The notes: generated by a model not told the origin, from the letters alone. A stretch of DNA of 64,000 nucleotides from an uncultured Gemmatimonadaceae bacterium (GCA_963829055.1 CAWHHI010000003.1:416001-480000), one strand, 5' to 3'; shown: positions 3 to 64,000, counted from the first letter of the stretch. A program made the numbers and translations.

Positions 3-3000
3 GGCGGCGCCGCTCATGTGCTGCTGCTCGAAGACGATGACCTACGACCCGCCGCCTCGTTCGGAACGAGCGGCGGCGCAGTCGGAGGACTACGGGAATC
101 GGATCAGGCGTTGGCTGCCGAGGCGGTTCGAGCGCGGCGCGCGGTGCGCGCCGACGATCTCGACGCGACCACGCACGAACGCGCCGCTGCGACCGCCGTG
201 GAGCCGCAGCAGCGCGGCCGCATTGGCGCGGTCGCTGCGCCTCTGCAGATCGGCGGACGGCCGATCGGCGCGGTCGTGGTCATCAACAAGCCCGAGCGGC
301 AGTTCTCGGAACACGAAGAGCAGCTGCTCATCACACTCGCCACGCACGGCGCGATAGCGCTCGAGAACGCGAAGCTGTACCGCGCCGCGGCACAGACCGC
401 GCGCCACGCGGGCATCCTCGCGGCAACCGCGCGCACACTGACCTTCAACGTCTCAGCGGAAACCCTCTACGCGGGCCTCGCACGGCTCGTGACGGAGTCA
501 CTGCGAGCGGACGGCTTCAGTATTCACGCGGCGGACGCCGCGTACGAGCAGGTGACGCTGCTGCACAGCCAGGGCAGCGGCGCCGAGGCGCCTAACGCGA
601 ACGTCGAGATCTTCTGGGATACGCCGGCAGGAACTACCATGCGATCCGGCGCGCCTCTGTTCGTGGGCGACGTGTCTGCCGACGCGTCCGCGCAGCCGGA
701 CCCCGGCGCCCGCGACGATGCGACCGCGCGCACCACGCGCGGCTCCATGGCGGTCCTGCCGCTCATCATCGAAGGACGCCCGCGCGGCGTTCTCACGCTG
801 CGGTTCCGGCACCCGCGTGACTTCGACGATCGCGAGCGCACGCTGCTCGTCGATTTCTCCACCGCCGTCGCCGTGGCCATGCGCAACGCCTCGCTCGTTG
901 GAGACCTCGAGCGGCGTGCTACGCGACTCTCGGCCGTCGCGAAGGTGCAGCTCGCAATGTCACGCACCGAGCTCCACGACGTCTACGCCGAGATCTATCG
1001 CGCGGTCGCGTCCTCGGTGTCGAACGCCACGTGCTTCGCGCTGGTCCTCGCCGATCAGAGCGCGTCGCTCTTCCGACCACAGCTCATCGTGGTCGACGGC
1101 ATCGTGACGTGGTCACCCGCGCTGCCCGCAGTGCCACTCACCGAGTGCGCCGCGTCGATCGCGCTGCGCACCGGCCAGACCGTCGTCTCGAATCAACCGG
1201 TGCGGTCGTGGGGCGCGCTCGTTCCGGGGACCGCCGCGACGCTCGCGTCGCAGCTGGTGTCGGAGATCGCCATCCCGATGGTGCATGGCGATCACACGCT
1301 CGGCGTCCTGATCGTACAGTCGGAAAAGCGCGGGGCGTTCAGCGACGAAGACCTCGAGCTCCTCTCCATCATCGCTCGTCAGGCAGGCGTCGCCATCGAG
1401 AACGCCCGCCTGTTCGAGTTGCAGCGCGCCGAGCGCGAGATGGCGGAAGCGGCAGCACGCGTCGCGCGCATCGCCCTGTCGAGCACGACTGCCGCGGACG
1501 CCGCCGCGGCCATCCTCGACGTGGTCGGCGACGTGGTGTCGCTCGCGGGCGCCGCGATCGGCCTCCTGCACCGAGACGACTCCGTCGTCTACGTGAGCGC
1601 CACCGGCAGCTCGCATTCGGCGGTCGGCAGACGCGTGCCGCTCGTCGCGAGTGTCGCCCGTGACGTGTTGCCGTCACAGGCCGACCGCCCGACCGGAGAC
1701 GCCGCCGCGGCGCCTAACGAGCAACGAGAGGAACCGCGCGACGAGGAGCTCTCCCGCGGCGGCGTGGTGTTGCCGCTGGCCGCCAAGAACCGAATGCTCG
1801 GCGTCCTCACAGCGGCCGCGCGGCCTGGCAGCACCCTGCCCCAGGCCGACATCGACGCGCTCCGCCGGCTCGCGTCCTCGATCGCGCTCGCCATCGACGT
1901 CCAGCTGCTCGGAGAAGGTGAGCGACATCGGCGTGAGCGAGAGCGCATGCTGGCGACGGCCCTGGCGACGATGGACCAGCCAGTGTTCGTGCTCGCGCTC
2001 GACCGGCGCGTGCTGTACGCGAACGACGCCGCTGTTCGCGAGTACGGCTATAGTCTCGACGAGCTCACCACGATGTCGGTGGACGTGTTCGTTGCCTCCG
2101 CGGTGCCCATTCGCGCCAGCGACGACCTCTCGCGCACGCCGGCGAACGTCGTCATCGCCGAACACGTGCACCGCCGGCGAGACGGGTCACAGTTCCCGGC
2201 CACGGTCGCGCTCAGCTTCATCCGACAGGACAACGGAGCGCCGATCGGGCAAGTGCTCAGCGTCCGCAACCTGACCGATGAGCGTCGTATCGCCGAGCAG
2301 TTACGTCAGAGCGAGAAGCTCGCCGCGTTAGGCGAGCTCGTCGCTGGCGTCGCGCACGAGCTGAACAACCCGCTTGCCGGCATCTCGGCCTTCGCCCAGC
2401 TCCTGCTCGAGGAAGAGCTGGACGCAGATCAGCGCGAGTCGGCGCGCCTGATCAAGCGCGAGGCCGACCGCGCCGTGGGCGTGATCCGCGACCTGCTGCT
2501 GTTCTCGAGGAAGACCGGGCCGAGCGTCGGGCCAGTGGACCTGAATGCGCTCGTGCAGTTCACGCTGCGCCTGCGAGCCTACAGTTTGCGGTCCTCGGGT
2601 GTCGAGGTCGAGACGAACCTCGACCCGTCCCTTCCCGAGCTCTCGGGCGATGATCAGAAGCTGCAGCAGGTGATCCTCAACCTGATCGTCAACGCCGAAT
2701 ACGCCATGCGGCGAACGCCGACGAAGCGTCTCGTGATCCGGACGGCCTGGGAGGGGGATACGGTCGTCACCGAGGTGTCGGACACCGGAACCGGGATGTC
2801 CGAGGAGACGCTCCAGCGGGTGTTCGAACCGTTCTTCACGACCAAACCAGCTGGCGACGGAACCGGGTTAGGGCTCAGCGTGAGTTACGGCATCGTCGAG
2901 GCCCACGGAGGAATCATCACCGTCGAGAGTGCGCCTGGACGGGGGACGAGCTTTCGCATCGTCCTGCCGGTGCCCCGCGCCCACTCGGAATCCCGCGGCC

Positions 3001-3011
3001 GATCCGCGTGA
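3..3011 (+). CDS. Multi-GAF/PAS sensor histidine kinase (5' end probably outside window)
   Basis: Frame open from window edge; repeated GAF signatures (AIALENAKLY, GVAIENARLF), PAS (HRRRDGSQFPA), H-box VAHELNNPL, N-box LNLIVNA, DTGTGM, FEPFFTTK, GTGLGL. Confidence 0.92.
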   Translation, partial: GGAAHVLLLEDDDLRPAASFGTSGGAVGGLRESDQALAAEAVRARRAVRADDLDATTHERAAATAVEPQQRGRIGAVAAPLQIGGRPIGAVVVINKPERQFSEHEEQLLITLATHGAIALENAKLYRAAAQTARHAGILAATARTLTFNVSAETLYAGLARLVTESLRADGFSIHAADAAYEQVTLLHSQGSGAEAPNANVEIFWDTPAGTTMRSGAPLFVGDVSADASAQPDPGARDDATARTTRGSMAVLPLIIEGRPRGVLTLRFRHPRDFDDRERTLLVDFSTAVAVAMRNASLVGDLERRATRLSAVAKVQLAMSRTELHDVYAEIYRAVASSVSNATCFALVLADQSASLFRPQLIVVDGIVTWSPALPAVPLTECAASIALRTGQTVVSNQPVRSWGALVPGTAATLASQLVSEIAIPMVHGDHTLGVLIVQSEKRGAFSDEDLELLSIIARQAGVAIENARLFELQRAEREMAEAAARVARIALSSTTAADAAAAILDVVGDVVSLAGAAIGLLHRDDSVVYVSATGSSHSAVGRRVPLVASVARDVLPSQADRPTGDAAAAPNEQREEPRDEELSRGGVVLPLAAKNRMLGVLTAAARPGSTLPQADIDALRRLASSIALAIDVQLLGEGERHRRERERMLATALATMDQPVFVLALDRRVLYANDAAVREYGYSLDELTTMSVDVFVASAVPIRASDDLSRTPANVVIAEHVHRRRDGSQFPATVALSFIRQDNGAPIGQVLSVRNLTDERRIAEQLRQSEKLAALGELVAGVAHELNNPLAGISAFAQLLLEEELDADQRESARLIKREADRAVGVIRDLLLFSRKTGPSVGPVDLNALVQFTLRLRAYSLRSSGVEVETNLDPSLPELSGDDQKLQQVILNLIVNAEYAMRRTPTKRLVIRTAWEGDTVVTEVSDTGTGMSEETLQRVFEPFFTTKPAGDGTGLGLSVSYGIVEAHGGIITVESAPGRGTSFRIVLPVPRAHSESRGRSA

Positions 3012-5685: not shown

Positions 5686-6930
5686 GTGTCGATAGCATCG
5701 CTCCTGCGTTCGCCCGCCGTGATCGTCGCGGCCACCGCTCTTGTCGTTACCGCGTGCTCGAAGGAGGCCGGAGACGGAACTCCCGCGTCCGCCGCAGCCG
5801 CTACTACCAAGTCCGACCGCGGTGGTGAGAAAGGCGGCGCACCTGGCGCTGCCGGCGCGCGGCGTACGAACTCCATCATTCTCGCGGCGAGCGACGTCAA
5901 GACGGTCGATCGTGGTACCATCGAGGCCGGCGTCTCGATCTCGGGCGATCTCAAGGCGATCGAAGAAGCCGTGGTCCGTGCCCGCCTCGAGGGTGACCTC
6001 GTGGGTGTCTACGTCCGCGAAGGTGACCGCGTCACCTCGGGCCAGCTGCTCGCGAAGTTCGAAGACAGCGAGCAGGAGAGCAACCATACGTCCGCAATCG
6101 CCGACCGCGAATCGGCACAGAGCGACCTCGAGACAGCCAAGTGGAACGCCGAGCAGGCCGACCAGCTGTTCAAGGCTGGCGCTATTGCCGAGCGCGATCT
6201 GCGCACCGCGCAACAGACGTTCGCCGCGAGCCGAGCTCGGCTCGCGGCTGCCGAGGCGCGGGTTCGCGCGACGATGTCGTTGTTGAGCGACACGCGCGCG
6301 GTCGCGCCCACCACCGGGGTCGTCGCCAGGCGCGGTGTCGAGAACGGTGAGCACGTCGCGCGCGGGGCAGAGATGTTCACGGTCGTTCGTTCGGATGTCC
6401 TCGAGCTCGGGGCTGCCGTGCCAGCACGTCAGGCGGGCGAGATCAAGGTCGGACAGCGCGTACACTTCGCCGCCGGCGGGCGGGACTTCGAGGGGCGCGT
6501 CGCGCGGATCAGCCCCACCATCGATCCCACGAACCGGTCCATCACCGTCTACATGCAGGTGCCTAACGTCGGCGGGGTGCTCAAGGCGAACTCGTTCTCC
6601 ACGGGTCGCATCGTCTCGCGCACCGTCGATGGCGCGATCGTCATTCCTAACGCGGCGATCCGTCAGGCCCAGGGCAACGACAAGCCGTTCGTCTACCGCC
6701 TCGACGCGACCGACGCGCTCGAGCGCGCGCCGGTCAGCGTCGGCATCGTGGACGAGAGCCAGGCGATCGCCGAGATCGTCGAAGGCCTCAAACCCGGCGA
6801 CCGCATCATCGTCGGCAACGTCGGCACGCTCGGCGCCGGTATGAAGGTGACCATCGCCGGCGGCGGCGAAGGCGCGAACGGGGAACGCGGAGCCGGCACG
6901 CGACGGCCCGGTGCTCCACCAGGACCCTAA
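5686..6930 (+). CDS. RND efflux periplasmic adaptor (membrane fusion lipoprotein)
   Basis: Lipobox-like VTAC; VREGDRVTSGQLL, APTTGVV, GLKPGDRII. Confidence 0.9.
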   Translation: MSIASLLRSPAVIVAATALVVTACSKEAGDGTPASAAAATTKSDRGGEKGGAPGAAGARRTNSIILAASDVKTVDRGTIEAGVSISGDLKAIEEAVVRARLEGDLVGVYVREGDRVTSGQLLAKFEDSEQESNHTSAIADRESAQSDLETAKWNAEQADQLFKAGAIAERDLRTAQQTFAASRARLAAAEARVRATMSLLSDTRAVAPTTGVVARRGVENGEHVARGAEMFTVVRSDVLELGAAVPARQAGEIKVGQRVHFAAGGRDFEGRVARISPTIDPTNRSITVYMQVPNVGGVLKANSFSTGRIVSRTVDGAIVIPNAAIRQAQGNDKPFVYRLDATDALERAPVSVGIVDESQAIAEIVEGLKPGDRIIVGNVGTLGAGMKVTIAGGGEGANGERGAGTRRPGAPPGP

Positions 6931-6951
6931 CGAGCAGCCGCGCAGCCGCCG

Positions 6952-6979
6952 GTTCCCGCTTCCCAGTTCCCTGTTCCCG
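6952..6979. repeat. Four imperfect 7-bp tandem units
   Basis: gttcccg-cttccca-gttccct-gttcccg in the MFP/RND intergenic gap. Confidence 0.6.
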
Positions 6980-18430: not shown

Positions 18431-19522
18431 ATGACGAGACAGGCTTTTAGCGCCGCCACGACTCTCGTCGTGGCGGCGTTTGCGTATGGGTGTCACTCGG
18501 CCCCGAATCCTGCACCGGCCCCTGCCGGCGCCGCTCCCACCGCCGCAGCCCGCGTCGACGCGGAGCCGGGCGAGTCGCACCTGGTGAACATCCGCCGTCT
18601 TACGAACGGCGGAGAGAACGCTGAGGCGTACTTCAGCCGCGACGGCCAGTGGCTGACGTTCCAGTCTACGCGCGAGGGACGGACGTGCGATCAGCAGTAC
18701 GTAATGCGCACGGACGGTTCAGGGCTTCGCCGCATCTCCAACGGAGATGGTAAGACGACCTGCGGGTATTTCTTCGACGGGGATCGACAGCTCCTCTTCG
18801 CATCCACACACGCGCACGGCGCAGCGTGTCCTGCGCGACCTGACGCGTCACAGGGATACGTCTGGGGACTCGACAAGTTCGACATCTACACGACGGATCG
18901 CGATGGCTCGAAGCTTCGTCGCCTGACGAACTACGACGTGTACACCGCGGAGGGGACGCTGTCGCCCGACGGACGGACGGTCGTGTTCACGTCGCTGAAG
19001 GATGGCGATCTGGACATCTACACGATGAACATCGACGGCTCGCACATCCGGCGCCTAACGACGGCACCGGGCTACGACGGCGGACCGTTCTTCTCTCCGG
19101 ACGGGAAGCGCATCGTCTATCGCGCCTACCATCCGACGGATTCCGTTGAGCTGCGCACGTATCGCGACTTGCTGCGTCAGGAAATGGTGCGGCCGAACAA
19201 GATGGAGATCTGGGTCATGAACGCCGACGGCTCCGATCAGCGTCAGGTGACGAACCTGGGGGGAGCCAACTTCGCGCCATTCTTCACGCCGGACGGTCGG
19301 CGCATCATCTTCTCGTCGAATCACAAGAACCCACGCAGCCGCAATTTCGATCTGTACCTCGTGAATCCGGATGGGACAGGGCTCGAACAGGTCACGACGA
19401 ACCCGGACTTCGACGGCTTCCCGCAATTCAGCCCGGACGGCAGGGAGATCGTTTGGGCGTCCAACCGCTTCGACGCAAAACCCGGTGAGACGAACATCTT
19501 CATCGCGGATTGGAAGAACTAG
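18431..19522 (+). CDS. TolB-like PD40 beta-propeller lipoprotein
   Basis: Lipobox-like AYGC; repeated FSPDG motifs. Confidence 0.88.
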   Translation: MTRQAFSAATTLVVAAFAYGCHSAPNPAPAPAGAAPTAAARVDAEPGESHLVNIRRLTNGGENAEAYFSRDGQWLTFQSTREGRTCDQQYVMRTDGSGLRRISNGDGKTTCGYFFDGDRQLLFASTHAHGAACPARPDASQGYVWGLDKFDIYTTDRDGSKLRRLTNYDVYTAEGTLSPDGRTVVFTSLKDGDLDIYTMNIDGSHIRRLTTAPGYDGGPFFSPDGKRIVYRAYHPTDSVELRTYRDLLRQEMVRPNKMEIWVMNADGSDQRQVTNLGGANFAPFFTPDGRRIIFSSNHKNPRSRNFDLYLVNPDGTGLEQVTTNPDFDGFPQFSPDGREIVWASNRFDAKPGETNIFIADWKN

Positions 19523-19543: not shown

Positions 19544-20659
19544 ATGATCGGTATGATCTTATTCGCTATCCTCGCCGCTTTCGGCCTGACCGTTTTCGCG
19601 GCAGCCGTGAAGATCATCGGACAGGCCGAGGTCATGGTCATAGAGCGACTCGGTCGCTTTCACCGTGTCGGCCGATCGGGGTTGAACCTGTTGATCCCGT
19701 TCGTCGAACGCCCGCGTCCGATCGATGTCCGATACGTCGAAGCAGACGTTTCGGGGATGAAACGCATCACCTCGGGAACAACGTCTCGCATCGATCTGCG
19801 CGAGCAGGTGCTGAACTTTCCGAGTCAGCCCGTCATCACGAAGGACAACGTCACCATCGATATCGACGCGGTGCTGTACTACCGTATCGCCGATCCGCAG
19901 AAGGCGACCTACGCCGTCCAGAACCTTCCGTACGCGCTCGAGACCCTAACGCGAACGACGCTGCGCAACATCGTCGGCGAAATGGAGCTCGATCAGACGC
20001 TCGCGAGCCGCGATCAGATCAACAGGCGCATGCGCGAAGTCATCGAGGAAGCGTCCATCGGGTGGGGCGTCGACGTGACGCGCGTCGAGCTCCAGGCCAT
20101 CGAGCCGCCGCGCGACATCCAACAGTCGATGGAACTGCAGATGCGGGCGGAACGAGAGCGCCGCGCAGCGGTCACGAACGCCGAAGCCGGGAAACGCGCG
20201 GCGATCCTCGAGGCCGAGGGCCTCCGCGAATCGCAGGTCCGCAAGGCGGAGGGCGAGAAGGAAGCCGCGATCCTGCGCGCGGAGGGTTTGGCGACCGCGC
20301 GACTCGCCATGGCGCAGGCGGAAGCTGAAGCCATCCAGCGGATCACGGCGTCGCTGCCCGAGGGTCAGGCGGCGATGTACTTGCTTGGGCTCAAGTACCT
20401 GGAAGCGCTGCCGGCAGTAACGCAGGGCAAGGGAACGACGATCTTTCTCCCCGCCGAGGCCTCGGGCGTCATGGGCGCGCTTGGCGGTATGCGCGAGCTG
20501 CTCAAGGCAACTGCCGGGACCGGGGGCGCCGTTGGCGGCCCGAATCAGGCTGCGTACACACCGCCCGCCGCGCGACCGGCTTTCAAGTCGCTGGCCGACG
20601 GTACATCGGGCTCGACGATCGCCGGCTCGAGCCCATCCGGTTCCTCGGACAACAGCTAG
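19544..20659 (+). CDS. SPFH/band 7 (stomatin/QmcA-like) membrane protein
   Basis: N-terminal TM, VIERLGRF, QPVITKDNV, RAERERRA. Confidence 0.92.
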   Translation: MIGMILFAILAAFGLTVFAAAVKIIGQAEVMVIERLGRFHRVGRSGLNLLIPFVERPRPIDVRYVEADVSGMKRITSGTTSRIDLREQVLNFPSQPVITKDNVTIDIDAVLYYRIADPQKATYAVQNLPYALETLTRTTLRNIVGEMELDQTLASRDQINRRMREVIEEASIGWGVDVTRVELQAIEPPRDIQQSMELQMRAERERRAAVTNAEAGKRAAILEAEGLRESQVRKAEGEKEAAILRAEGLATARLAMAQAEAEAIQRITASLPEGQAAMYLLGLKYLEALPAVTQGKGTTIFLPAEASGVMGALGGMRELLKATAGTGGAVGGPNQAAYTPPAARPAFKSLADGTSGSTIAGSSPSGSSDNS

Positions 20660-29645: not shown

Positions 29646-30232
29646 ATGACCATCGCGACTCAGAAGGCGCTGGTGCCTTCGCTGGCATCGATTGCCTTGA
29701 TCCTTGCGTGCCCCGACGCAATTGCCGGGCAGTCGTTGAGCACACGCCCGGCGTCTGTCGCGTTGACGGTGGTGGTGCCCCCACGCGCGCCGCCCGTGCT
29801 GGTGGAGCAGTGACGGATGGGAGTGCGACCGTCCTCGGTCGCACGTCCACCGCGGTCGATCTCGAAACGATGGTAGGGCTCGGAGATCACCTGACATCCC
29901 GGATCGAGGTCCGGCTCGGAGCCGCGTGGACCACGGATTCCGCGCGCGTGTGGGTACGAAGCCGAAACGGCACGTTCGAGCAACTTCTCAGCAACACAAT
30001 GATCGTGGCGCTCGACGCGCCACTCGCGCGTTCGGTCGTGCGGTCGCCGTTGCATTTCCGTGTCGAGTCGGCTCGGCCCCTCGCGTTGCCGTCGCTGTCG
30101 ATTCCGGTCGAGTACCGCCTGACTGTCGGCACCGGAGACGAAATCGCGGTGTGGACCTTTCCGACGGTCATCCGATTCGATTCGACCCCACCTAACGTTG
30201 ACTTCGGATCGCCGTCGCCATCTAGTCGTTAG
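29646..30232 (+). CDS. Secreted beta-rich hypothetical protein (frameshift near 29805)
   Basis: Signal peptide in one frame (MTIATQKALV...AIAG-QS); beta-rich body in the 29498..30232 frame. Confidence 0.5.
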
Positions 30233-39848: not shown

Positions 39849-39901
39849 GCGTCCTCAGCAACATCTGCTGGAGCGTGAGCGGTCCGCCGCGTGTGCGTCA
39901 C

Positions 39902-42031: not shown

Positions 42032-42062
42032 GAGGGTCGAGTCGTGGGTTCGTTAGGGAGCG

Positions 42063-42674
42063 TTAGGCGTCGTCGAGTCGCTCGATCGCACGCGCGATCG
42101 CACGCTGCAACTGAATCTCGCGTTCGCCGGCGTTGATGACGGTATCTGGTAGCGCGGCGGCAAGTAGGGTGCACTGTCGTAGCATTTCGTCGCGCACGAT
42201 CGCCGGCGATGGGTCGCGGACACCAAGGCTCTGCAGCACCCCAGATGCAAGCACCCGGAGTTGATCGCGCGTCGTGTCGGTCAGCCCGTCGAGCGTGGGC
42301 GGGTCGAGTGGGGCTTCGATGACCGCGGGCTCGCCCGGCGGTCGTCGCCCCGTGGCCGCGCTCAGGGGTGCGAGTCGGACCACGAACGAACCGGGTGAGT
42401 GCTCACTATGCTCGAGTACAACGCCGCGCGTCGACAGGAACGCGATGAGGCGCCTAACGGCTTCGCGCACGACGGGTACTGCGCCGAAGCTCTGGTTCCC
42501 CCGCCCCGTGATCACGAGCACTTCACGGGCCCCTTCGGCCTGCTTCATACGCAACCAGCTTTCGGTGCGCTTCACCGCTTCCGCGGCGGTGGGCAGCGAT
42601 GCGCGGAGATTCAGCGTTCCGGTTCGCCCGAAGCGGATCTCGTCGAGCGCGTGTTGGAGCGGTCGTCGCGTCAC
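42063..42674 (-). CDS. Smr/MutS2-domain protein
   Basis: LNLR, VLVITGRGNQS, GSFVVRL. Confidence 0.75.
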   Translation of the reverse strand: MTRRPLQHALDEIRFGRTGTLNLRASLPTAAEAVKRTESWLRMKQAEGAREVLVITGRGNQSFGAVPVVREAVRRLIAFLSTRGVVLEHSEHSPGSFVVRLAPLSAATGRRPPGEPAVIEAPLDPPTLDGLTDTTRDQLRVLASGVLQSLGVRDPSPAIVRDEMLRQCTLLAAALPDTVINAGEREIQLQRAIARAIERLDDA

Positions 42675-42678
42675 GCCG

Positions 42679-44266
42679 TTAGCGTATGGACGAGCGCAAC
42701 ACGTGGCCGTCGAGGCGTTCAAGGGGCGTTATGCCGAGCACCTCGGCGAGAGTCGGTGCCATGTCGACGACACGCGCAAACTCGTCGTACTTGCCCGGCT
42801 TGAAGGGCGGACCGTAGAAGAGCACGGGCACATGCGCGTCGTAGTCGTGCGGCGTCCCATGCGTCGCGTTTCCCTGCCCCCAATAATTGTATGGCTGAAG
42901 CGTGACGACGACTTCGACGGGAAGCTCTGGCGGCAGCATGTGCAGCCAGCGACGCGCGATCGCGTCCTTCGTTGTGTCGGCGCGCGCGAGGTCACGCACG
43001 AGGTCGACGCGGAGCACGCCCGGGACTTTCCGCTCCGCGGCAACAAAGGCCGCGATCACAGAGTCGGGTGACAGTCGGCCCGCTGCCAGCGCCTTCCTGT
43101 TCACCAGCAGGAAGGGCGTGTCCCAGATGAATCGCGTCGAATCGCGCAGCGCGGCCGTTACGCGCGCTTCCGCGGCCCACGCCGTGTCGAGCGCGGCACG
43201 AACGTACGTTGCTCCCGCGTTAGGGTCGTGAGACTTCACACCGAGATATGGCGCGACTCCATGATCGGCGGTGAGCGTGACGATCACGCGCGACGAGTCG
43301 CGGACCTTGTACAACGAGTCGAAGAACGCGCCGAGGTACCGATCGAGGCGGAGGATCTGGTCGTGCAGTTCTCGCGAATCCGGTCCATAGGCATGACCAA
43401 TCGCGTCGGTCGTGGAGAGCGAGACCGCGAGGATGTCGGTCTGCGGGCCGGTACCGAGCTTCAGCGCCTCGAGACCTTCGAGCGCGAACTGCAACGTCAG
43501 GTCGTCCATCCACGGAAACGCGGCGAACACACTCGCCGCCTGCGCCGGATCAGCCGGCGCGACGTGCGGAAATGTCGTCCCGCCCCGGCCAGCGTTTTCC
43601 TGCGGGACGTCGTCTGGTTCGGGGTATTGCGTTGGGTCGAGCAGCAGCGTCCACTCTTTACCGGCATATTGGGCGGGAATGCGTCGCGCGTTGAAGCGCT
43701 GCACCCACGTCGGCAGTGTGTCGGCGTAGTACGTGCTGGTCGAGAAGTTTCCGGTCGTCGCGTACCAGAACACCGACTGCTTCGCACGCCCCATCGGGAG
43801 AATGGCTCCGCGGTCTTTCCGCGACACGGACAGCGCATGTGATCGCGGGTCCTTGCGCTGCAGCCATTCGATCAGCGTCGTTCCACGAAACCGAAACGGC
43901 GACGCGCCGATCGCGCCACCGCCGATCACGGGAGATCGCGGGTCTTCCACCCCTCGCGAGTTCTCCAAGATCCCCGTGCTCCGCGGAAATCGTCCCGCCA
44001 TCGTCACCGAATGGCCAGGTGCCGTTTCGGTGATCGCATGATCATGAAACGCATTGGTGTAGAAAGCGCCACCGCGGTACAGCCGAGCGAGGCCTCCGGT
44101 CAGTTGGGGCTCGAAGCGCGAGAAATAGTCGGGGCGCATCTGGTCCACGGTGATGAAGACCAGAAGCGACGGCGTCGCGCTCGCCACGGGTCCCTGAGAG
44201 TTCTGCGCGCACGCAACGGCGGGGAGCAGTCCCAAGGCGAGGCAAGAAGACTCGTGAACGAAGCAT
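42679..44266 (-). CDS. Alkaline phosphatase superfamily protein (PafA/NPP-like); signal peptide probably frameshifted near 44243
   Basis: VDQMRPDY, TETAPGH, TDAIGHAYGPDS, TADHG, THGTP. Confidence 0.9.
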
Positions 44267-45183: not shown

Positions 45184-45250
45184 CTGTGCCTAACGAAGTG
45201 ACATCGCTGGTGACCCCCGGCGCGCGATCCGCTGGGTGCGGCGTTGTCGC

Positions 45251-46435
45251 CTAGATCACCTGCTCCAGGATCGCCAACCCTCGCGCAATGTCCTCGCGCG
45301 ACGCCACGAGCGGCGGGAGGATCCGCAGCGTATAGTCGCCCGCTGTGAGCAAAAGGAGGCCAGCCTCTCGCGCACGGGCAACCACATCACCCGCAGCCTC
45401 ACCCACATCGAGGCCCCAGATGAAACCCGTGCCGCGAATGGCGCGAACTTTTCCCGTTCGCTCGCCGATGCCACGGAGCCCTTCACCGATCAACTTGCCC
45501 GTTGATTTGACGTGCGCGAGGAACGCCGCATCGGCGATGCGCTCGAGCACGTGGAGCGCGACCGACGCGACGAAGGGCCCGCCTCCGAACGTCGTGCCGT
45601 GCTCGCCCGCCTTCATTGTGGACGCGATCTGCCCGTTGAGAAGCACCGCACCCATCGGGAGGCCGCCTGCGATGGGCTTGGCCAGTGTCAGCATATCTGG
45701 CTCGACGCCGATCTGCTCGTAGGCGAACAGCGTTCCCGTCCGGCCCATGCCGCACTGAATCTCGTCGAAGATGAGCGCGACTTTGCGCTCGCGAGTCAAT
45801 GCGCGGAGCTCACGGATGAATCCGTGGTCGAGCACGCGCACACCGCCCTCGCCCTGCACCGGCTCGAGGATGACGGCCGCAACGGTCTCAGCGTCGAGCA
45901 CGATGGCGAGATCTTCGATGTCTCGCTCGACTATCGACACTCCGCCGGCCAGAGGGCGGAACGGCGCGCGATACGCGGGGCGATCAGTTGCCGCGAGCGA
46001 GGCGAACAGACGCCCGTGGAAGGAGCCACGAAGTGCGATGATATCGGTCTTCGCGGCGCCGACGGTGCTGCGGGCCCATTTGCGCGCGAACTTGAACGCC
46101 CCCTCGTTCGCTTCCGCTCCCGAATTGCAGAAGAACACCTTGTCCGCGAACGACAGCTCCACGAGGCGCGACGCGAGCTGCTCGCCCGGCGCAGTCCGGA
46201 ACAGATTCGAGACGTGAATCAATCCATCGACGGCGGCGTGCATTGCTTCACGCAGGCCGTCGTCCGCGTAGCCTAACGCGTTGACGGCAATGCCGCTGGC
46301 GAAATCGAGGTACGCGCGACCGTCGGCATCGAACAGTTCGACACCCTCGCCGCGAACGAGCTCGATCGGAGCACGCTTGTACAGACCCAGCAGCGCATCC
46401 GCGCTCGGCGGAGCGACCGTCGTGATAGTGGCCAT
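45251..46435 (-). CDS. argD: Acetylornithine aminotransferase
   Basis: FCNSGAEANE, FHGR, EPVQGEGG, DEIQCGMGRTG, LAKPIAGG; arg cluster context. Confidence 0.93.
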   Translation of the reverse strand: MATITTVAPPSADALLGLYKRAPIELVRGEGVELFDADGRAYLDFASGIAVNALGYADDGLREAMHAAVDGLIHVSNLFRTAPGEQLASRLVELSFADKVFFCNSGAEANEGAFKFARKWARSTVGAAKTDIIALRGSFHGRLFASLAATDRPAYRAPFRPLAGGVSIVERDIEDLAIVLDAETVAAVILEPVQGEGGVRVLDHGFIRELRALTRERKVALIFDEIQCGMGRTGTLFAYEQIGVEPDMLTLAKPIAGGLPMGAVLLNGQIASTMKAGEHGTTFGGGPFVASVALHVLERIADAAFLAHVKSTGKLIGEGLRGIGERTGKVRAIRGTGFIWGLDVGEAAGDVVARAREAGLLLLTAGDYTLRILPPLVASREDIARGLAILEQVI

Positions 46436-46437: not shown

Positions 46438-47190
46438 TCAGACCGTCGTTGTAGAAAGTGTGATCACTGTTCCCGCGGTCGCGGACTCGATCCCCGCGAT
46501 GTTCCCGATTCGGACCCTCGATACGCCGAGCTCCACCGCGCGTCGCGCGGCCTGGAGCTTGGCGGCCATCCCTTCGCGAGCCGTTCCATTGTCGACCAAT
46601 GCGGCAGCCTGTTCGAGGTCGAGCTCCGGCACAACCACGCCGTTGGCCATGACACCCGGCACGTCGGCGATGAGCACGAGCTCCTCAGCACCCATGGCAA
46701 CCGCGATGGCCGCGGCGGCATCGTCCCCGTTGACGTTCAACGTCGCGCCGCTTTCCTCGTCTCGAGCGAGCGGTGAGACCACGGGCACGTACCCAGCGCT
46801 CACGAGCAGCTCGAGCAGCCGCGGATCGACCTGTGACGGCGCGCCCACCTCGCCTAACGTCTCCCGCGAGCTGACCCGCGCGCGCAGGAGGCCGTCGTCC
46901 TCGCCGGAAATACCGACAGCGCGAATTCCTTCGCTCACAAACGTCGAAACCAGACGTTTGTTGGCGCTTCCGGACAGCACCATCCGCACGATCTCGAGGT
47001 CGGCTGCAGTCGTCACCCGGCGTCCACCGTGAAACGTGGGGGTCATGCCGAGGCGTCGCTGGAGCCCCGACACCTCGTCGCCGCCGCCATGCACGACAAC
47101 GACGCGACCGTTGTTGGCCGCATGTCGTATCGCCGGCGCAAGGCCCGCATCTGATTGCGCTCGCCCACCGATCTTTAGTACGCGCGTCAT
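46438..47190 (-). CDS. argB: Acetylglutamate kinase
   Basis: VLKIGG, VVHGGG, GRRVT, NVNGD, GMAAKL. Confidence 0.92.
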   Translation of the reverse strand: MTRVLKIGGRAQSDAGLAPAIRHAANNGRVVVVHGGGDEVSGLQRRLGMTPTFHGGRRVTTAADLEIVRMVLSGSANKRLVSTFVSEGIRAVGISGEDDGLLRARVSSRETLGEVGAPSQVDPRLLELLVSAGYVPVVSPLARDEESGATLNVNGDDAAAAIAVAMGAEELVLIADVPGVMANGVVVPELDLEQAAALVDNGTAREGMAAKLQAARRAVELGVSRVRIGNIAGIESATAGTVITLSTTTV

Positions 47191-48890: not shown

Positions 48891-50150
48891 ATGAAGACCA
48901 TAGTGCTTGCCTACTCTGGCGGGCTGGATACTTCGATCATCGTGCCCTGGCTGCGCGAGAAGTACGACGCGCGCGTTATCTGCGTCGCCGCCGACATCGG
49001 GCAGGGTGCCGAAGAATTGGCCGGCGTGCGCGCGAAAGCGTTGGCGTCAGGCGCCGAGGAGTGCTACGTCGAAGACCTCCGGGAAGAGTTCGTTCGCGAC
49101 TTCATCTTCCCTACCCTCCGCGCCGGCGCGATCTACAATCGCAAATACCTGCTCGGCACCTCCATGGCGCGACCGCTGATCGCCAAGCGCCAGGTCGAGA
49201 TGGCCCGGGCCGTCGGCGCCGACGCGCTCGCACACGGATGCACCGGCAAAGGCAACGACCAGGTCCGCTTCGAGCTGACCTACATGGCGTTCGCACCCGA
49301 CCTTCCGGTGATCGCGCCGTGGCGCGAGTGGGATATTCGCAGCCGCGAGGATGCGATCGCGTACGCCGCCGCCCGGAACATTCCCGTCGCGGCGACGAAG
49401 GAAAAGATCTACTCGCGCGACCGAAATCTCTGGCACATCTCGCATGAAGGAGGAATCCTCGAGGATCCCGCTCAGGGCCCCCCGAAGGACGTCTTCATGC
49501 TCAGCACCGATCCGCAGGATGCGCCTAACGCACCCGAGGATGTCGTCATCGGATTCGTTGCCGGCACGCCGGTCTCGGTGAATGGCCAGGAGCTCGGACC
49601 GATCGACCTCATCGCTCAGCTGAATGCCATCGGGGGCAAGCACGGCGTCGGGCGCATTGACCTGGTCGAGGACCGCATGGTCGGCATGAAGTCGCGCGGC
49701 GTCTACGAGACGCCGGGCGGCACCCTGCTCTACTCGGCGCACAGTGAGCTCGAACAACTCGTCCTTGATCGTCGCACCCTGGCCGCCAAGGATCTGATCG
49801 CGCCGCGTTATGCGGACATCGTGTACGAGGGCCGCTGGTGGACGACTGAACGCGAGGCCTACGATGCCTTCGTCGGCGTTACCCAACAACGCGTGACGGG
49901 CTCGGTGAAGCTCCGCCTGTACAAGGGTTCGGCGTCCGTCATCGGGCGTGAGAGCGTGCACGCGCTGTACGACGAGCGGTTCGTGACGTTCGGCGAGGAC
50001 GACGTGTACGAGCAGAGCGACGCCGCCGGCTTCATCCGGCTGTACGGACTCTCCATGCGCGTTCGCGCCATCAAGGATCAGGAGATGGCCGCGGCTCAAT
50101 CGCCGGCGCCGGCCGAGGGAGCGTCCGAGGCGGCGCTCGTCGGCGCGTGA
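48891..50150 (+). CDS. argG: Argininosuccinate synthase
   Basis: [35 protein letters not shown]. Confidence 0.97.
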
Positions 50151-51718
50151 GCGCTACGGAAGGCGGGCACCCGGCAGGCACCGTCGTCACGGGAGAATTC
50201 GCGCACGATAGCGGAGGCAGCATTGAGGCCGGTCGCAGCGAGGCCGGCTTCGCGGGCGACACGGAGGCAGGGCCGGCCCGGAGGGCGTCGTTAGGCGCTC
50301 CGGCGCACAAGTTGTGGGGCGGGAGATTCAGCTCGGGCCCCGCTCCCGCGCTCGAGGCCGTGAATCGGTCGATCGGCACAGACTTCCGCCTCTGGCCGTT
50401 CGATATTCGCCTGTCCAAGGCGTGGGCCGTCGCGCTGTGGAACGCCGGGATCCTGACCCTCGAGGAGAGCCGGCAAATCGAGTCGGGGCTCGATGCCGTC
50501 GCCCAGCGGTTCAGTGCCGGCGAGTCACCCGTCGCGACGGACGAAGACGTGCACACGATGATCGACCGGCTTCTTCATGCGGAGGTCGGCGATGTCGCGT
50601 CGAAGCTGCACACGGGACGCAGCCGAAACGATCAGGTTTCGACCGCCACGCGTCTTTGGTGCATCGACGCGTGCGATACGATCGACAGCGCAGTGCGGAA
50701 CCTGCAGCACGTCATGGTGCGCCAGGCGTCCGAGCATCAGCACGCGCTCATGCCGTCCTACACGCATATGCAGCGTGCGCAGCCCGTGTCGGCGGCGCAC
50801 TGGATGTTATCGCATTTCTGGCCGCTCGATCGCGATCGCGCCCGACTGTCGACGGCCGCGCGTTCGGCTGGCGTTTTGCCGTTAGGCTCCGGCGCCGTCG
50901 CCGGTTGTGCCTTCCCAATCTCCCGTGTGTTGCTCAAGGGGAGCCTCGGGTTTTCGGCGATCTCCAGGAACAGCATCGACGCCGTTGCCGACCGTGATTT
51001 CGTGGCCGAGCTGCTGTTCTCCCTGTCGCTCCTCGGCGCGCACATCTCGAGGCTCGGTGAGGATCTGATCCTGTACGGGTCGAGCGAGTTCGGGTTCGTT
51101 CGGTTCGGAGATTCGTACACGACCGGGTCGAGCATGATGCCGCAGAAACGCAACCCGGACGCGCTGGAGCTCGCCCGAGGATCGGGCGCTCGGATGCTCG
51201 GAGATCTCACGGCGCTGCTGGCGACCTTGAAGGGGCTGCCAAGCGGCTACAACAAGGATCTCCAGGACGACAAGCGCGCGCTGTTCGACGCTGTGGACGG
51301 GATGCTGCTGGTGCTCCCGGCGGTCTCGGGAACGCTGGACGAGCTGACCTTCGACACAGCCCGCATGGGGGCCGCTGTGTCGAGCACGATGATGGCGACC
51401 GATCTGGCGGACTATCTGGTCGGGAAGGGAATCACGTTCCGGGAAGCGCATTCCAGTGTGGGGCAACTCGTCCGGCAAGCTGAAGAGACCGGGATCGAGT
51501 TGCATGCGTTGCCGATGTCGGTGTTCACCGGCGCGCACGCCGCGTTCGGCCCCGACGTGCGCGACGCGTTGTCGGCGCAGGCATCGGTCGAACGCCGCGA
51601 GGTCGATGGGGGAACTGGCCCGCGGGCCGTTCGCGCGCAACTCGATGCCGCGATCGCGTCGCTGGTGCAGGGCGGGGAGCCGGCACGCGGCAACGAGCTG
51701 AGTATCCGCGCGGACTAA
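50147..51718 (+). CDS. argH: Argininosuccinate lyase
   Basis: [27 protein letters not shown]. Confidence 0.97.
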
Positions 51719-53445: not shown

Positions 53446-53910
53446 CTACTGGCCGACGACGCGCACTCCATTGACGAAATACTCCGTCTCTCCGAAACAG
53501 GACGTGGGCACGCCCTTGTGCTGCTCGTACTGGATCGCGACACGTTGGCCCTGCGCCTTGTTGATCACGGCCGCGAGACTGTCGCTCCGGACCGTGAACT
53601 GGAACGTGTTCGCGAGCTGCCCGGGCAGGTTGACCATCGCGATCTCGCCCTCGTAGGTCTTACAGAGCCAGCCCTTCTGGGAAAACTTCTGGACGTAGCC
53701 AACGCGCTCGCCCGAGGAGTACGTGTACGCCATCGCGATGAGAGTCCAGAGCGTGAGCCCCAGGATCGGCACGAGCACGATTGTGGCAGCCAGCAGCTTC
53801 CCCCAGTGCCGCCGCCTGAAGCTTTTCCTGACGGGCGGCTCCGAGCCACGAATTGCCTCGACATCCTTGGTGTTGTATCCCCGATCGGGGTAGTGCTCGT
53901 CTTGGGTCAT
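53446..53910 (-). CDS. Hypothetical single-TM protein
   Basis: TM helix followed by [26 protein letters not shown]. Confidence 0.7.
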
Positions 53911-53969
53911 GGCAGCTCGATGTATCTTGGAACGGTAGGTTTAGACAGGATTTGGCGACGGGAGAGGTC

Positions 53970-55205
53970 GTGGCGTTCGGAACTCGCAGACATACGGTAA
54001 CAGTTACTGTTGGCGGCGTGCAAATCGGGTCGCCGCATCCGGTCGTCGTTCAGTCGATGACGAACACGGATACCGCCGACGCGGTGGGCACGGCGGACCA
54101 AGTTGCCGCACTGGCGTCCGCCGGTTCTCAACTGGTCCGCGTGACAGTAAACAACGAGGCCGCAGCAGCCGCGGTTCCGGAAATCGTCGCCCGGTTGGCG
54201 GACCGCGGAATTGATACGCCCGTTATCGGCGACTTTCACTACAACGGCCACCTGCTGCTCACGAAGTATCCCGAGTGTGCGCGCGCGCTGGCGAAGTATC
54301 GAATCAACCCGGGCAATGTCGGGAGCAAGCGGCGAGACGAGAACTTCCGATCCATCGTTACGGTCGCGCTCGAGCACGACAAACCGGTTCGCATCGGTGT
54401 GAACTGGGGATCGCTCGATCAGGATCTGTTGACGACCATGATGGACGCCAACGCCAGCTCACCCGAGCCGCGCGACGCGAAGGACGTCTACATCGAAGCG
54501 ATGATCGAGAGCGCACTTCGCTCCGCAGCGTTGGCGGAGCAGGTCGGGCTTCGCCACGATCGCATTCTGATTTCCGCCAAGGTGTCGACGGTCCAGGACC
54601 TCGTCACCGTCTACCGACGGCTCGGCGCTCGCTGCGACTTTCCGCTCCACCTGGGACTCACCGAGGCCGGACTGGGCACGAAGGGCGTCGTCGCGAGCAC
54701 GGCTGCCCTGTCGATCCTGCTGGCCGAGGGTATCGGTGATACGATCCGCGTGTCACTCACGCCGAGGCCTAACGGCGATCGCACGGAGGAAGTGCTGGTC
54801 GCGCAGCAGATTCTGCAATCGCTCGGTCTGCGCAACTTCACGCCGCAGGTCACCGCGTGCCCCGGCTGCGGACGAACAACGTCCACGTTTTTCCAGCAGA
54901 TGGCGGAGGACATCCAGAACTACCTTCGCGAGCAGATGCCGGTCTGGCGCGCGCAGCACCCGGGCGTCGAGGAGATGCGCGTCGCCGTCATGGGCTGTGT
55001 CGTCAACGGCCCGGGCGAGTCGAAGCACGCGAACATCGGGATCTCACTGCCGGGGACCTTCGAGGAACCCGTGGCGCCCGTGTACGTCGACGGGAAACTC
55101 GCGACCACGCTCCGGGGCGGGTCGATCGTGCCGGAATTTCTGGAGATTCTCGAGCAGTACGTTGCCCGTCGCTACCCGTCGGGCGAACCGGTCGCGGTAG
55201 CCTAA
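53970..55205 (+). CDS. ispG: (E)-4-hydroxy-3-methylbut-2-enyl-diphosphate synthase
   Basis: [50 protein letters not shown]. Confidence 0.97.
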
Positions 55206-55912
55206 CGATTCACACTGCGGTCAGTAGGTTGGGACGGAGGGTAGCGCGTCTGGCTGCTCTCGCGCGCGGTCTCGGCTCCAAGCGGATTGTGCCGTACGTC
55301 GCTTCCCGGTACCCACCCTGCCAGATCGCGCGCGGCGTCATCGAGCTCGCGCATGATCGGCGCATCGAATCCGACGTCGCGTAGCCGATCGTGCACGCGG
55401 CGGTACCAGCGAATCGTAGCCTCGCGCCCTGCGCTGAAACGCCCCCAGACCGTTTCCGGATAGTCGGTGCGCTTGAGGTCCGAGAGGATGGTGCTCGCGT
55501 TATGCACTTTGTCCGCCGCACAGACCCAACAGGCACGAGCACTCGCATCGGATAGCCGCGCGAGGTAATCGTCCTTCCGCTCCTCGGACGACATTTCGGT
55601 GCCGTCGTCGTCGTACTTGCGGCTCGTCACCGCGAGCACGGTGGACAGGACATCGGTGCCGAACTTGTCAGCCACCCGACTCTCCAGCATGTCACGCGTG
55701 TACCCGTCGCGCACACAATCCTCGATCACGTCGTGGAGAATTCCCGCGACCACCGTTTCCTCATCCTGGCCGTATCGCGTCAGGATGATGGCGACGTTCG
55801 CAGGGTGCGTGAGGTAGGGAAGTCGCGTTCCCTTACGCACCTGCTGGTCGTGGTGCTTCGCCGCGAACGCGAGCGCGTGGTTGATGCGGTCCGAGTATCC
55901 GATACTCGTCAT
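55202..55912 (-). CDS. Stand-alone HD-domain hydrolase (SpoT/MESH1-like)
   Basis: [27 protein letters not shown]. Confidence 0.8.
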
Positions 55913-59175: not shown

Positions 59176-59325
59176 AGTCCGGCTCCGATGCGGCTCACAT
59201 TTTCGGCGCGACGCGCTGTATGAGCATGCGCGGTGCCCGCCGTGCCTAACGTTCGCACCGAGACGGCATCGACGTGCTGCTCTGCCGCGTTATGCGCTGT
59301 TATGCGCTCATGAGTGGCAAGCAAA

Positions 59326-60339: not shown

Positions 60340-61206
60340 ATGCTGAGGATCGCACTACCCAACAAGGGTCGTCTCGCAGAAGACACGCGTGATCTGTTCG
60401 AAGACGCAGGCCTCGCCGTGCGCGCTCGTGGCGAGCGGGCACTGACTGCGTCGCTGGGCGGCGAGTACGAGGCGATCTTCGTCCGCGCTCAGGATATTCC
60501 GGAGTTCGTCGCCGACGGCGCCGCCGACGCCGGTATCACCGGGTGGGACCTCGTGTGCGAATCGGAGCGCGAGCTCGACGTGCGGCTCGATCTCGAGTTC
60601 GGCCGTTGCCGGCTGGTCGTAGCGGCGCGCGAGGACAGCGGTATCGAGCGACTCGATCAGATCGTGAGCGGCCGGGTGGCTACGGTCTTTCCCCGCGTGA
60701 CGCGTCGCTTCTTCGATCGACCAGGGTGCCGCGTCGAGGTGGTCCCGGTGTCTGGTGCGGCGGAAATCGCTCCGCACCTGGGTATCGCCGACATCGTCGT
60801 CGACCTCACTTCGACGGGCTCGACTCTAAAGGTGAACGGGCTCCGCGAAGTCGCGACGGTGCTCGAGTCTTCGGCACGCCTGGTCACGCGGATGTCCGGC
60901 ACCGCACCGGCCGACTCGACGAAGCGCCGCGCGTTCGACGAACTGGCAGCCGCGCTCGAGAGTGTGTTGCGTGCACGAGGCCAGCGCTACGTCATGGCGA
61001 ACGTGCCACGCGCCGCGCTCGACCGGGTAAAGGAAGTCCTGCCAGGGCTGAACGGGCCGACGGTCATCGACATCATGAACGGCGGCGAGCACGTGGCGGT
61101 TCACGCGGTCGTGCCGGCGGCGGCCATCTTCCGCACGATCGCCCAACTGAAGGCGTTAGGCGGCGCAGGAATTCTCGTCACGCGCATCGAGAGGCTCATG
61201 CCATGA
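60340..61206 (+). CDS. hisG: ATP phosphoribosyltransferase (long form)
   Basis: LRIALPNKGRL, RAQDIP, DLTSTGSTL. Confidence 0.96.
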   Translation: MLRIALPNKGRLAEDTRDLFEDAGLAVRARGERALTASLGGEYEAIFVRAQDIPEFVADGAADAGITGWDLVCESERELDVRLDLEFGRCRLVVAAREDSGIERLDQIVSGRVATVFPRVTRRFFDRPGCRVEVVPVSGAAEIAPHLGIADIVVDLTSTGSTLKVNGLREVATVLESSARLVTRMSGTAPADSTKRRAFDELAAALESVLRARGQRYVMANVPRAALDRVKEVLPGLNGPTVIDIMNGGEHVAVHAVVPAAAIFRTIAQLKALGGAGILVTRIERLMP

Positions 61207-63634: not shown

Positions 63635-64000
63635 GGGCGACCATCTTCGACTACGGGGCGGGGAACATCCACTCGCTCGCGAAGGCCATTGAAGCGGCGG
63701 GAGCGACGGTAGTCGTCGAGCCTGATCCGCGCCGCGCCGTGGACACGGACGTGTTGGTGCTTCCCGGGGTCGGTGCGTTCGGTGCGGCAGCCGAGCGCTT
63801 GGCGCCTGGGCGAGACGCGATGCGTGATGCGCTCGCAAACGGCCTCCCCTGCCTCGGCATCTGTCTCGGCATGCAGCTGTTCCTCGATGGGAGCGAGGAA
63901 AGCGCGCCTAACGCCGGCGGGCTCGGCATCATCCCGGGGCAGGTGACGCGACTCCGAGCGCGGCACGTACCACAGATCGGATGGAACTCCATCGATCAGG
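63631..64000 (+). CDS. hisH: Imidazole glycerol phosphate synthase glutaminase subunit (runs off window)
   Basis: Read directly from sequence: FDYGAGNIHSL, LPGVGAF, LGICLGMQL, VPQIGWN. Confidence 0.93.
   Translation, partial: MRATIFDYGAGNIHSLAKAIEAAGATVVVEPDPRRAVDTDVLVLPGVGAFGAAAERLAPGRDAMRDALANGLPCLGICLGMQLFLDGSEESAPNAGGLGIIPGQVTRLRARHVPQIGWNSIDQ

Follow-up and report, generated by a model that had tools for sequence, protein, structure and literature searches.

The stretch of DNA analysed here, referred to as the window, is a 64,000-nucleotide segment (contig C3, positions 416001-480000) of the genome of an uncultured Gemmatimonadaceae bacterium (GCA_963829055.1, CAWHHI010000003.1; G000 in our genome set), which comprises 7.78 Mb in 20 contigs with 66.5% G+C and is 86% complete. 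Its gene content is that of an ordinary chromosomal region, including a resistance-nodulation-division (RND) efflux system, arginine and histidine biosynthesis genes, and the gene for IspG. Dispersed over the window is a short non-palindromic word, CCTAACG/CGTTAGG, which a first-pass annotation had noticed at 36 places (21 in the former and 15 in the latter orientation), together with six sites that carry only the hexamer CCTAAC/GTTAGG (2867, 7371, 8868, 29639, 51732, and 63002). A both-strand search matched the 36 heptamer coordinates and the six hexamer positions exactly. In 100 dinucleotide-preserving shuffles, the heptamer appeared 3.0 times on average (standard deviation 1.6, maximum 7) and none of the shuffles reached 36, so that the excess had been recognised correctly, although the initial estimate of about 7 expected copies was, if anything, too high.

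The genome contains 6391 heptamers, 78% of which are preceded by a G (25 of the 36 in the window). The alignment of these 6391 sites revealed no consensus beyond one base on either side: from there outwards the information content is approximately zero, and only the three-base periodicity of coding DNA remains. Given the frequent 5' G and the absence of further information in the flanks, the unit is not the heptamer, as first proposed, but the bare octamer GCCTAACG, without a longer repeat around it. The conserved sequence or structure outside the core that characterises repetitive extragenic palindromic (REP) elements or miniature inverted-repeat transposable elements (MITEs) was not found in these flanks. 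The octamer occurs 5004 times (2457 copies on the plus strand and 2547 on the minus strand), that is, 0.64 times per kb or approximately once per 1.5 kb, and its density is nearly uniform on all 20 contigs (0.48-0.80 per kb). In agreement with the annotation, which knew of no description of the motif, the octamer was not found in the literature searched, and the heptamers appeared there only in an unrelated cancer review.

Despite its TAA core, GCCTAACG ranks 14th in frequency among 32,697 octamers, and it is the most over-represented octamer under Markov models of order 1, 2, and 3 (131, 102, and 257 copies expected, respectively; a 19- to 49-fold excess). When the models were trained with the word masked, 19-57 copies were expected, corresponding to an excess of about 90- to 260-fold. 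This strong signal was not maintained at higher orders: the observed/expected ratio was only 1.72 at order 4, and the word was not outstanding under the maximal-order model. The small excess under these models is explained by the fact that the sub-words occur almost only inside the word (7103 of the 8933 genomic CTAA tetramers fall within CCTAAC). Among the internal variants, GCATAACG is also enriched (583 copies, 11-fold) and shares the flank preferences of the main word; therefore, the recognised form is approximately GCMTAACG. The other internal one-letter variants are present at 0.65-3.2 times the expectation, which represents the baseline, and the C-to-T neighbours GTCTAACG, GCTTAACG, and GCCTAATG at 1.0, 2.3, and 1.6 times. 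Since neither group is depleted, there is no sign that the word acts as a sink for repair.

Genes were called crudely as stop-to-stop open reading frames (ORFs) with a high G+C content at third codon positions, which yielded 5389 ORFs covering 70% of the genome. The word was found in all four frames that are able to stay open, both sense and antisense, with a slight antisense preference. The commonest reading is NCG-TTA-GGC, followed by CCT-AAC, CTA-ACG, and GTT-AGG, the last of which adds to the three frames noticed initially. In the remaining two frames the word introduces a stop codon (TAA or TAG); 205 of 696 TAA stops (29%) and 153 of 1457 TAG stops lie inside it. As the word holds 24% of the TAA triplets genome-wide, its share of the stops is merely proportional to its share of those triplets, and a special association with gene ends was ruled out. 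When synonymous codons were shuffled within the ORFs (10 repeats), 128-148 copies were obtained versus 3120 observed, so that a 22-fold enrichment persisted under the codon-preserving control proposed with the annotation; 45% of the TTA codons are located within the word. These results support the earlier view that the motif is a genome-wide signal at the DNA level that is not explained by protein sequence.

Regarding the reliability of the assembly, positions 38001-58000 of the window are covered at approximately 99% identity by contigs from four public metagenome runs, each belonging to a different study. Of about 607 differences, 40 were listed, none of which hits a word; these 40 reach to position 44311 and thus cover four of the twelve words in this region. 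Near-identical DNA is present in at least 15 studies, and relatives assembled independently also carry the word, which speaks against the consensus artefact considered at the outset. The idea that composition, codon usage, misassembly, or a family of longer repeats gives rise to the word could draw on the shrinkage of the excess at order 4 and maximal order; however, this shrinkage is circular, given that the sub-words are nearly confined to the word, and the codon shuffle, the masked models, the absence of extended flanks, and the independent assemblies make this explanation scarcely credible.

Neighbouring words are co-oriented in 2587 of 4982 pairs (52%), with a mean gap of 1530 bp. On contig C16, the one contig with a clear GC-skew switch (at about 500 kb), the presumed leading strand has 298 words (45%) and the lagging strand 367, a ratio about as predicted from the slight antisense preference and the orientation of the genes. 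Hence, no replication polarity was observed, whereas known Chi sites and FtsK-orienting polar sequences (KOPS) show replication-linked skew. The initial opinion that the motif fits an uptake, protein-binding, or modification-linked signal better than Chi or KOPS holds with respect to this polarity; its modification-linked option is disfavoured by the results described below. Regarding spacing, we observed 71, 215, and 453 gaps shorter than 100, 200, and 300 bp, respectively, versus 315, 614, and 891 under random placement (standard deviation 18-26), and all 16 control octamers of similar abundance (4500-5500 copies) showed 549-1178 gaps shorter than 200 bp. An exclusion zone of about 200-300 bp thus separates the words. 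Such even spacing indicates that the benefit of the word reaches saturation within each DNA segment, and it speaks against an independent mutational origin of the copies. Taken together, GCCTAACG appears to be a signal in double-stranded DNA that is indifferent to strand, frame, and gene.

To evaluate the retention of the word, positions 38001-58000 of the window were aligned to five congeners, which are not mutually independent, at 76% nucleotide identity. The alignment comprised 53 heptamer places, of which 36 were kept exactly, versus 16.5% of the other 7-mers and 19.7% of the TA-containing 7-mers. Where the word is missing, several bases differ and so do the amino acids (Asn versus Gly or Asp); for instance, in IspG the word encodes Pro-Asn and the congeners G003 and G004 have Pro-Gly. 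At greater distance, the argininosuccinate synthase gene has GCG CCT AAC G in common in four genera (represented by G000, G305, G241, and G014), and G298 keeps the heptamer, while the word-poor genome G294 reads CCC GAC at this site. Two further sites are common to G241, G305, and G014 at 70-76% identity, one of which is kept exactly and the other as the heptamer in G298. G294, which is equally diverged (77% identity), mismatches four of the eight letters at two of the three sites of G241 and three of the eight at the third. The location and context of each word in the window are presented in Table 1.

Table 1. Occurrences of the word in the window, with strand, gene context, and retention in relatives
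Form	Position	Strand	Context
GCCTAACG	590..597	+	Histidine kinase gene, sense, GCG CCT AAC GCG (A-P-N-A)
GCCTAACG	1712..1719	+	Histidine kinase gene, sense, Pro-Asn frame
GCCTAACG	2326..2333	-	Gene reading GCG TTA GGC (A-L-G)
GCCTAACG	6561..6568	+	HlyD-type gene, Pro-Asn frame
Heptamer only (CCCTAACG)	6646..6652	+	HlyD-type gene
Heptamer only	6926..6932	+	TAA 6928-6930 is the stop codon of ORF 5686..6930
GCCTAACG	19053..19060	+	PD40-repeat gene, CGC CTA ACG (R-L-T)
Heptamer only	19945..19951	+	SPFH/Band 7 gene
Heptamer only	29048..29054	-	Gene reading GTT AGG (V-R)
Heptamer only	30191..30197	+	Outside Pfam-annotated ORFs
GCCTAACG	30227..30234	-	TAA 30231-30229 is the stop codon of minus-strand ORF 30229..32178
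GCCTAACG	31104..31111	-	649-aa ORF, sense, Pro-Asn frame
GCCTAACG	31426..31433	-	649-aa ORF, sense, Leu-Thr frame
Heptamer only	32737..32743	+	Antisense, TTA frame
Heptamer only	32907..32913	-	Leu-Thr frame
GCCTAACG	33404..33411	-	Pro-Asn frame
GCCTAACG	35783..35790	-	Outside Pfam-annotated ORFs
GCCTAACG	38490..38497	+	Leu-Thr frame; kept in G006, the sole relative aligned there
Heptamer only (ACCTAACG)	39901..39907	+	GCCTAACG at this place in G006 and G002
Heptamer only	40645..40651	-	M28 peptidase gene
GCCTAACG	41498..41505	+	Antisense TCG TTA GGC; heptamer kept in 4/4 aligned relatives
Heptamer only	42051..42057	-	Next word 10 bp away
GCCTAACG	42061..42068	-	Outside Pfam-annotated ORFs
GCCTAACG	42452..42459	+	Kept in 0/4 aligned relatives
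Heptamer only	43218..43224	-	Phosphodiesterase gene
GCCTAACG	45188..45195	+	Kept in 2/2 aligned relatives
GCCTAACG	46271..46278	+	Aminotransferase gene, antisense GCG TTA GGC; kept in 3/5 relatives
GCCTAACG	46852..46859	+	Amino-acid kinase gene, antisense ACG TTA GGC; heptamer kept in 5/5 relatives
GCCTAACG	49523..49530	+	Argininosuccinate synthase gene, GCG CCT AAC GCA; kept in 5/5 congeners
GCCTAACG	50289..50296	-	Argininosuccinate lyase gene, antisense TCG TTA GGC; heptamer kept in 3/5 relatives
GCCTAACG	50880..50887	-	Argininosuccinate lyase gene, antisense CCG TTA GGC; kept in 3/5 relatives
GCCTAACG	54767..54774	+	GcpE/IspG gene, CCT AAC (P-N); Pro-Gly in G003 and G004
GCCTAACG	55200..55207	+	TAA 55203-55205 is the stop codon of the GcpE/IspG ORF 53853..55205
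GCCTAACG	59244..59251	+	Outside Pfam-annotated ORFs
GCCTAACG	61154..61161	-	Histidinol dehydrogenase gene, antisense GTT AGG (V-R)
GCCTAACG	63906..63913	+	Outside Pfam-annotated ORFs

Two stretches of the window, of 12 and 9 kb (6932-19053 and 19951-29048), show no heptamer; they have a lower G+C content (0.62-0.64), carry genes for an RND pump, PLD-like, S41 peptidase, SPFH, and GH3 proteins, and may have been acquired more recently. Word-free blocks of 31-50 kb are also present at contig ends (C6:5440-55037, C6:591808-623330, and C11:1-46789), where they hold housekeeping genes (those for FtsK, glutamine synthetase, FolD, and GreA, and the trp and DAHP synthase genes). With a density of 0.64 words per kb, chance cannot produce gaps of this length; therefore, the blocks are likely to be contig ends that are chimeric or mis-binned, or else to stem from large transfers of recent date. 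Single-base indels distinguish the window from contigs of several independent runs at 39646-39648, 44246, 48059, and 57684, and two genes of G000, an AddAB-like locus (C15:9162-16046) and a D12 methyltransferase gene (C8:134909-135647), are frame-split and correspond to long open frames in relatives, so the assembly probably carries indel errors. A stretch of very high summed depth in the metagenome contigs (52999-53277, minus strand) is a 92-codon cold-shock protein gene, with many paralogues in G000 and its congeners (70-86% DNA identity, most 73-80%); a tRNA or Rfam family was ruled out for it.

The survey of related genomes, in which the counts were judged against a reversed-word control, showed that the word extends to relatives, as the annotation had proposed to examine, and that its distribution is patchy. 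It exceeds the control in 14 of 41 relatives: all seven genomes of the same genus (2501-5112 copies); G014, the richest (6360 copies in 5.1 Mb, 92% complete); and G010, G019, G020, G036, G038, and G040 (177-605 copies). The relatives not above the control have 6-194 copies, fewer than the control word. Across the phylum, 15 of 301 genomes are above the control, all of them among the 198 genomes of the same order, and none of the 103 genomes outside this order shows enrichment. In the phylum of the genome that contains locus L073, the word was likewise above the control in none of 79 genomes. The unpublished genomes G013, G086, G125, and G204 were counted only as word-poor members, and no claim depends on them. 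When octamers were ranked by excess in genome samples, GCCTAACG was first in G014 and in G010 and eighth in G040, where only AT-rich words seen one to three times stood above it. Additionally, in G010, and only in this one of the 41 genomes, the variant GCCAAACG is commoner than the main word (925 copies versus 110 for the control); this variant is likewise a bare, dispersed word with the flank preferences of the main one, and in the other 40 genomes it is at the control level.

No dispersed bare word replacing GCCTAACG was found in samples of the word-poor genomes G294 (227 kb) and G007 (400 kb). The G294 sample contains tandem arrays of the heptamer GAAAGCA that face inverted arrays 50-100 bp away and recur many times (for example, at L212:612-691 and 5693-5807), and AGAAAGCAG occurs in it 66 times, 82 times the expectation; this kind of repeat is distinct from the word. 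The list for G007 is headed by GGAATGACA and CATTCCGGC, which are related to another group of longer words that are over-represented (TCGGAATGACA, AGTCGAGGAAT, TCCGCTCGGA, and TGTCATCCCGAG) and head the high-order Markov lists of G000. This suggests that the longer words of both genomes are a dispersed repeat family common to the bacterial family.

The spacing, retention, and distribution of the word bear on the possibility that a nucleoid-associated or chromosome-organising protein binds it and that, in very large populations, weak selection preserves each site. The precedent would be the cyanobacterial highly iterated palindrome HIP1 (GCGATCGC), likewise an octamer, which is over-represented 15- to 300-fold, is conserved in place within and between ORFs, has a lineage-patchy distribution, and has a function that has long been elusive (PMC5861425). 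The even spacing with its exclusion zone, the positional conservation, and the near-uniform density over the contigs would suit such a protein. However, there is no known candidate, and an essential architectural role is hard to square with repeated loss, most family members being wordless; G294, with 66 copies, is no more diverged from its word-rich congeners than are other genera that carry the word. For these reasons, we consider an architectural role rather unlikely.

As candidate readers, we examined hand-picked protein families, among which no specific reader of the word was found: IntI, RecC, the AddB-like protein, ComEC, the PilQ-like secretin, and the D12 methyltransferase all fail to track it. 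With respect to methyltransferases, no match to Vsr, PF00145, PF01555, or PF02384 was found in the 86%-complete G000. Its sole D12 family is present in 17 of the 41 genomes without correlation with the word, and was not found in G014, G010, G019, G020, G036, and G040. Thus, the search for a co-occurring methyltransferase suggested with the annotation yielded none that tracks the word among the families tested. SMRT (single-molecule, real-time) sequencing detects 5-methylcytosine poorly. The genome G305, of the same family, matches a cultured strain: its contig C2 is 100% identical over 5 kb to the Gemmatirosa kalamazoonensis plasmid record NZ_CP007129.1, which places the family in the Gemmatimonadaceae and not in the Longimicrobiales, an assignment first suggested by the names of matches. 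The SMRT methylome published for that strain, which has 4469 word sites, lists only RGATCY, ATGCAC, and CCAGN7TCA, each more than 99% methylated (PMC3974934), and the word of this word-rich strain is not among the methylated motifs.

These data argue against a process of the HIP1 or Dcm-Vsr type, with a methyltransferase modifying the word and mismatch repair biased towards producing it from near-matches. Cyanobacterial hyper-abundant octamers have indeed been tied to orphan methyltransferases (PMC4390886); however, HIP1 is palindromic and lies inside the sites of such enzymes, whereas GCCTAACG is asymmetric, its reverse complement being CGTTAGGC. Besides the failure to find the enzymes or a methylated motif, the C-to-T neighbours are not depleted, and over-dispersed spacing would not be expected from independent conversions. 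Therefore, we regard this possibility as very improbable.

In 20-kb samples, the density of the word is 0.6-0.85 per kb on each of the four replicons of G305; according to the authors, the matching strain has, besides its chromosome, two replicons of approximately 1 Mb (megaplasmids) and a 21-kb high-copy element that is possibly a phage (PMC3974934). This full density on plasmids and a putative phage fits a protective tag, or a general process within the cell, at least as well as an uptake word. A protective self tag with a Chi-like logic would stop or modulate a nuclease or a defence system, so that every resident replicon, plasmids and phages included, would be selected to carry the word at short intervals and in both orientations; even spacing and both orientations would suit the protection of two-ended breaks. 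Like GCCTAACG, Chi, KOPS, and SpoIIIE recognition sequences (SRS) are asymmetric 8-bp words over-represented genome-wide, but they differ in strand polarity, and the enrichment found here is far above that of known Chi sites. Only one of the 41 relatives yielded a RecC. Although an alpha-type AddB was not found in G000, a divergent AddAB-like locus is present in it at C15:9.1-16.0 kb. The AddB-like protein is shared with G003, G004, G006, and the word-poor G009 (with weak matches in G008 and G035) and was not found in G014, G010, and G040. Since neither RecC nor the AddB-like protein tracks the word, both were rejected as a Chi-type nuclease reader. We consider the protective tag unlikely, although the least so of the alternatives.

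The conserved cores of integron attC sites are RYYYAAC and GTTRRRY (PMC5027507), and GCCTAAC/GTTAGGC fits this consensus letter for letter; the word has exactly the spelling of the local attC R'' box, a likeness not noted in the annotation. In the word-poor genomes G027, G025, and G029 the octamer occurs in few copies, clustered on one strand at intervals of 500-650 bp, and each copy opens an imperfect palindrome of 90-135 nt (GCCTAACG...TGTTAGGC); these copies are R'' boxes of true attC arrays. A covariance model, R1, built from 36 attC sites of word-poor relatives gave 55 matches on the arrays' own strand (loci L081-L085), which served as the positive control. The octamer search had not detected 11 of these 55 sites; the R'' sequence is GTCTAACG in eight of the 11, and the trailing G is retained in ten. 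In the window R1 had no match; in 341 kb of word-rich DNA it gave five weak matches, three of them beside the single intI of G000; and over the whole genome no match was found among the 150 of 6637 candidates that were scored. A fold-energy screen of 786 R''...R' pairs revealed only a handful that are attC-like or form a hairpin. The dispersed copies are not organised in same-strand arrays adjoining intI, as indicated by their co-orientation and mean gap; they lack the 55-140 nt imperfect palindrome, and lie inside housekeeping genes. We conclude that the dispersed copies of GCCTAACG are not attC sites.

The intI-like gene of G000 (C20:208041-208958, minus strand) is just at the curated cut-off (265.7 bits versus 265). 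Two or three weak attC-like sites are located within 16 kb of it (L188:2696-2795, 15101-15191, and 15716-15814), on its 3' side, which is an unusual layout. Two perfect hairpins of 52 and 55 nt (C20:163143-163194 and C18:97494-97548, respectively), whose stems start and end with inverted words, look like minimal attC sites or terminators.

In relation to this likeness, an integron-integrase-like tyrosine recombinase, or a protein derived from one, could bind or cleave the word in double-stranded DNA, with the dispersed copies acting as recombination or capture sites or titrating such a protein. Apart from the core identity, the shared trailing G in the attC arrays and the enrichment of GCATAACG with the same flanks would agree with this proposal. 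To our knowledge, however, a lone non-palindromic half-site is not a tyrosine-recombinase core site, and the dispersed copies show neither flank conservation nor a link to gene ends beyond the general TAA share of the word. Integrases over the cut-off are common in the order (24 of the 41 relatives), but by our reading of the hit list full-length IntI above this cut-off is present in 7 of the 16 word-carrying genomes (the 14 exceeding the control, together with G018 and G021, which fall slightly short of it) versus 12 of the 25 others, and so it does not track the word. The dialect GCCAAACG of G010 violates the RYYYAAC rule. IntI can use double-strand genomic sites, although, according to the same preprint, these require GWT only (bioRxiv 10.1101/2022.09.11.507474). 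On balance, an integrase-like reader appears improbable.

The explanation that we favour, tentatively and with a probability of roughly 0.4, is that the word is a self tag resembling the DNA uptake sequences (DUS) of Neisseriaceae and the uptake signal sequences (USS) of Pasteurellaceae, maintained by a process that acts on whole DNA segments. The even spacing, the retention, and the indifference to strand, frame, and gene indicate a benefit per segment, and the known process that gives such a pattern is the biased uptake and recombination of fragments with the word, as for DUS and USS. Under this model, a force acting on whole segments and not on single mutations would keep the GCMTAACG word at about one per 1.5 kb: a DNA-binding reader of an uptake or recombination route would prefer fragments with the word, and word-bearing alleles would replace wordless ones until nearly every fragment-sized stretch holds one. 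The reader would presumably belong to DNA uptake or recombination, and the word-bearing bacteria would be transformable. Like DUS and USS, GCCTAACG is a short non-palindromic word found on both strands at approximately one per kb; as those are, it is located in genes in several frames, alters peptides, and is evenly spaced (PMC2817400, PMC3630211). Related species also retain it, it is confined to one lineage, and one genus has a dialect (GCCAAACG in G010). In the Ssn/NTS system, the repeats are longer and flank the system's own nuclease gene (PMC11893778).

Several observations weigh against an uptake-like tag. The word belongs to a different phylum and has a different spelling, and its distribution, with enrichment over the control in 14 of the 41 relatives and in 15 of the 301 genomes of the phylum, is much patchier than that of DUS or USS. 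It is written with the rarest codons, whereas USS reading frames follow preferred codons (PMC2817400), and only 13 inverted word pairs occur within 60 bp, unlike the terminator pairs of neisserial DUS. The cognate receptor in Neisseria is a ComP-type minor pilin. Of the general uptake machinery, ComEC and a PilQ-like secretin are present in G000, but they are found in 40 of the 41 relatives with or without the word and are therefore not discriminating. The full density on the megaplasmids and the putative phage element of G305 and the failure of the hand-picked families to provide a reader point in the same direction, as does the identity with the integron core, which fits a reader of fixed, widely shared specificity better than a lineage-specific uptake receptor. 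Finally, the ten papers on Gemmatimonadota ranked highest by our search mention neither 'DNA uptake sequence' nor 'uptake signal sequence'.

Uptake words have been proven in two bacterial families only, and HIP1 has been unexplained for thirty years; to these GCCTAACG adds a third hyper-abundant word, similarly strong, from a soil phylum that has received little study. The system is tractable, with natural on/off contrasts at similar divergence (for example, G241 and G298 versus G294) and one dialect. As G305 matches a cultured, fully sequenced strain with a methylome, the reader can be sought by pull-down and the uptake idea is directly testable. In practice, the word flags foreign or mis-binned DNA in assemblies of word-rich bacteria. 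Its identity with the integron core is of second, independent interest and may link genome-wide words to cassette traffic. One bold and rather unlikely extension is that the word is a shared 'currency tag' of the soil: the universal integron cassette core would have become the recognition word of a DNA reader present in some Gemmatimonadales. If so, integron cassettes would all be pre-tagged for capture. The chromosomes of the hosts would likewise bear a tag approximately every 1.5 kb at conserved places, so that genomes with the word could exchange DNA segment by segment.

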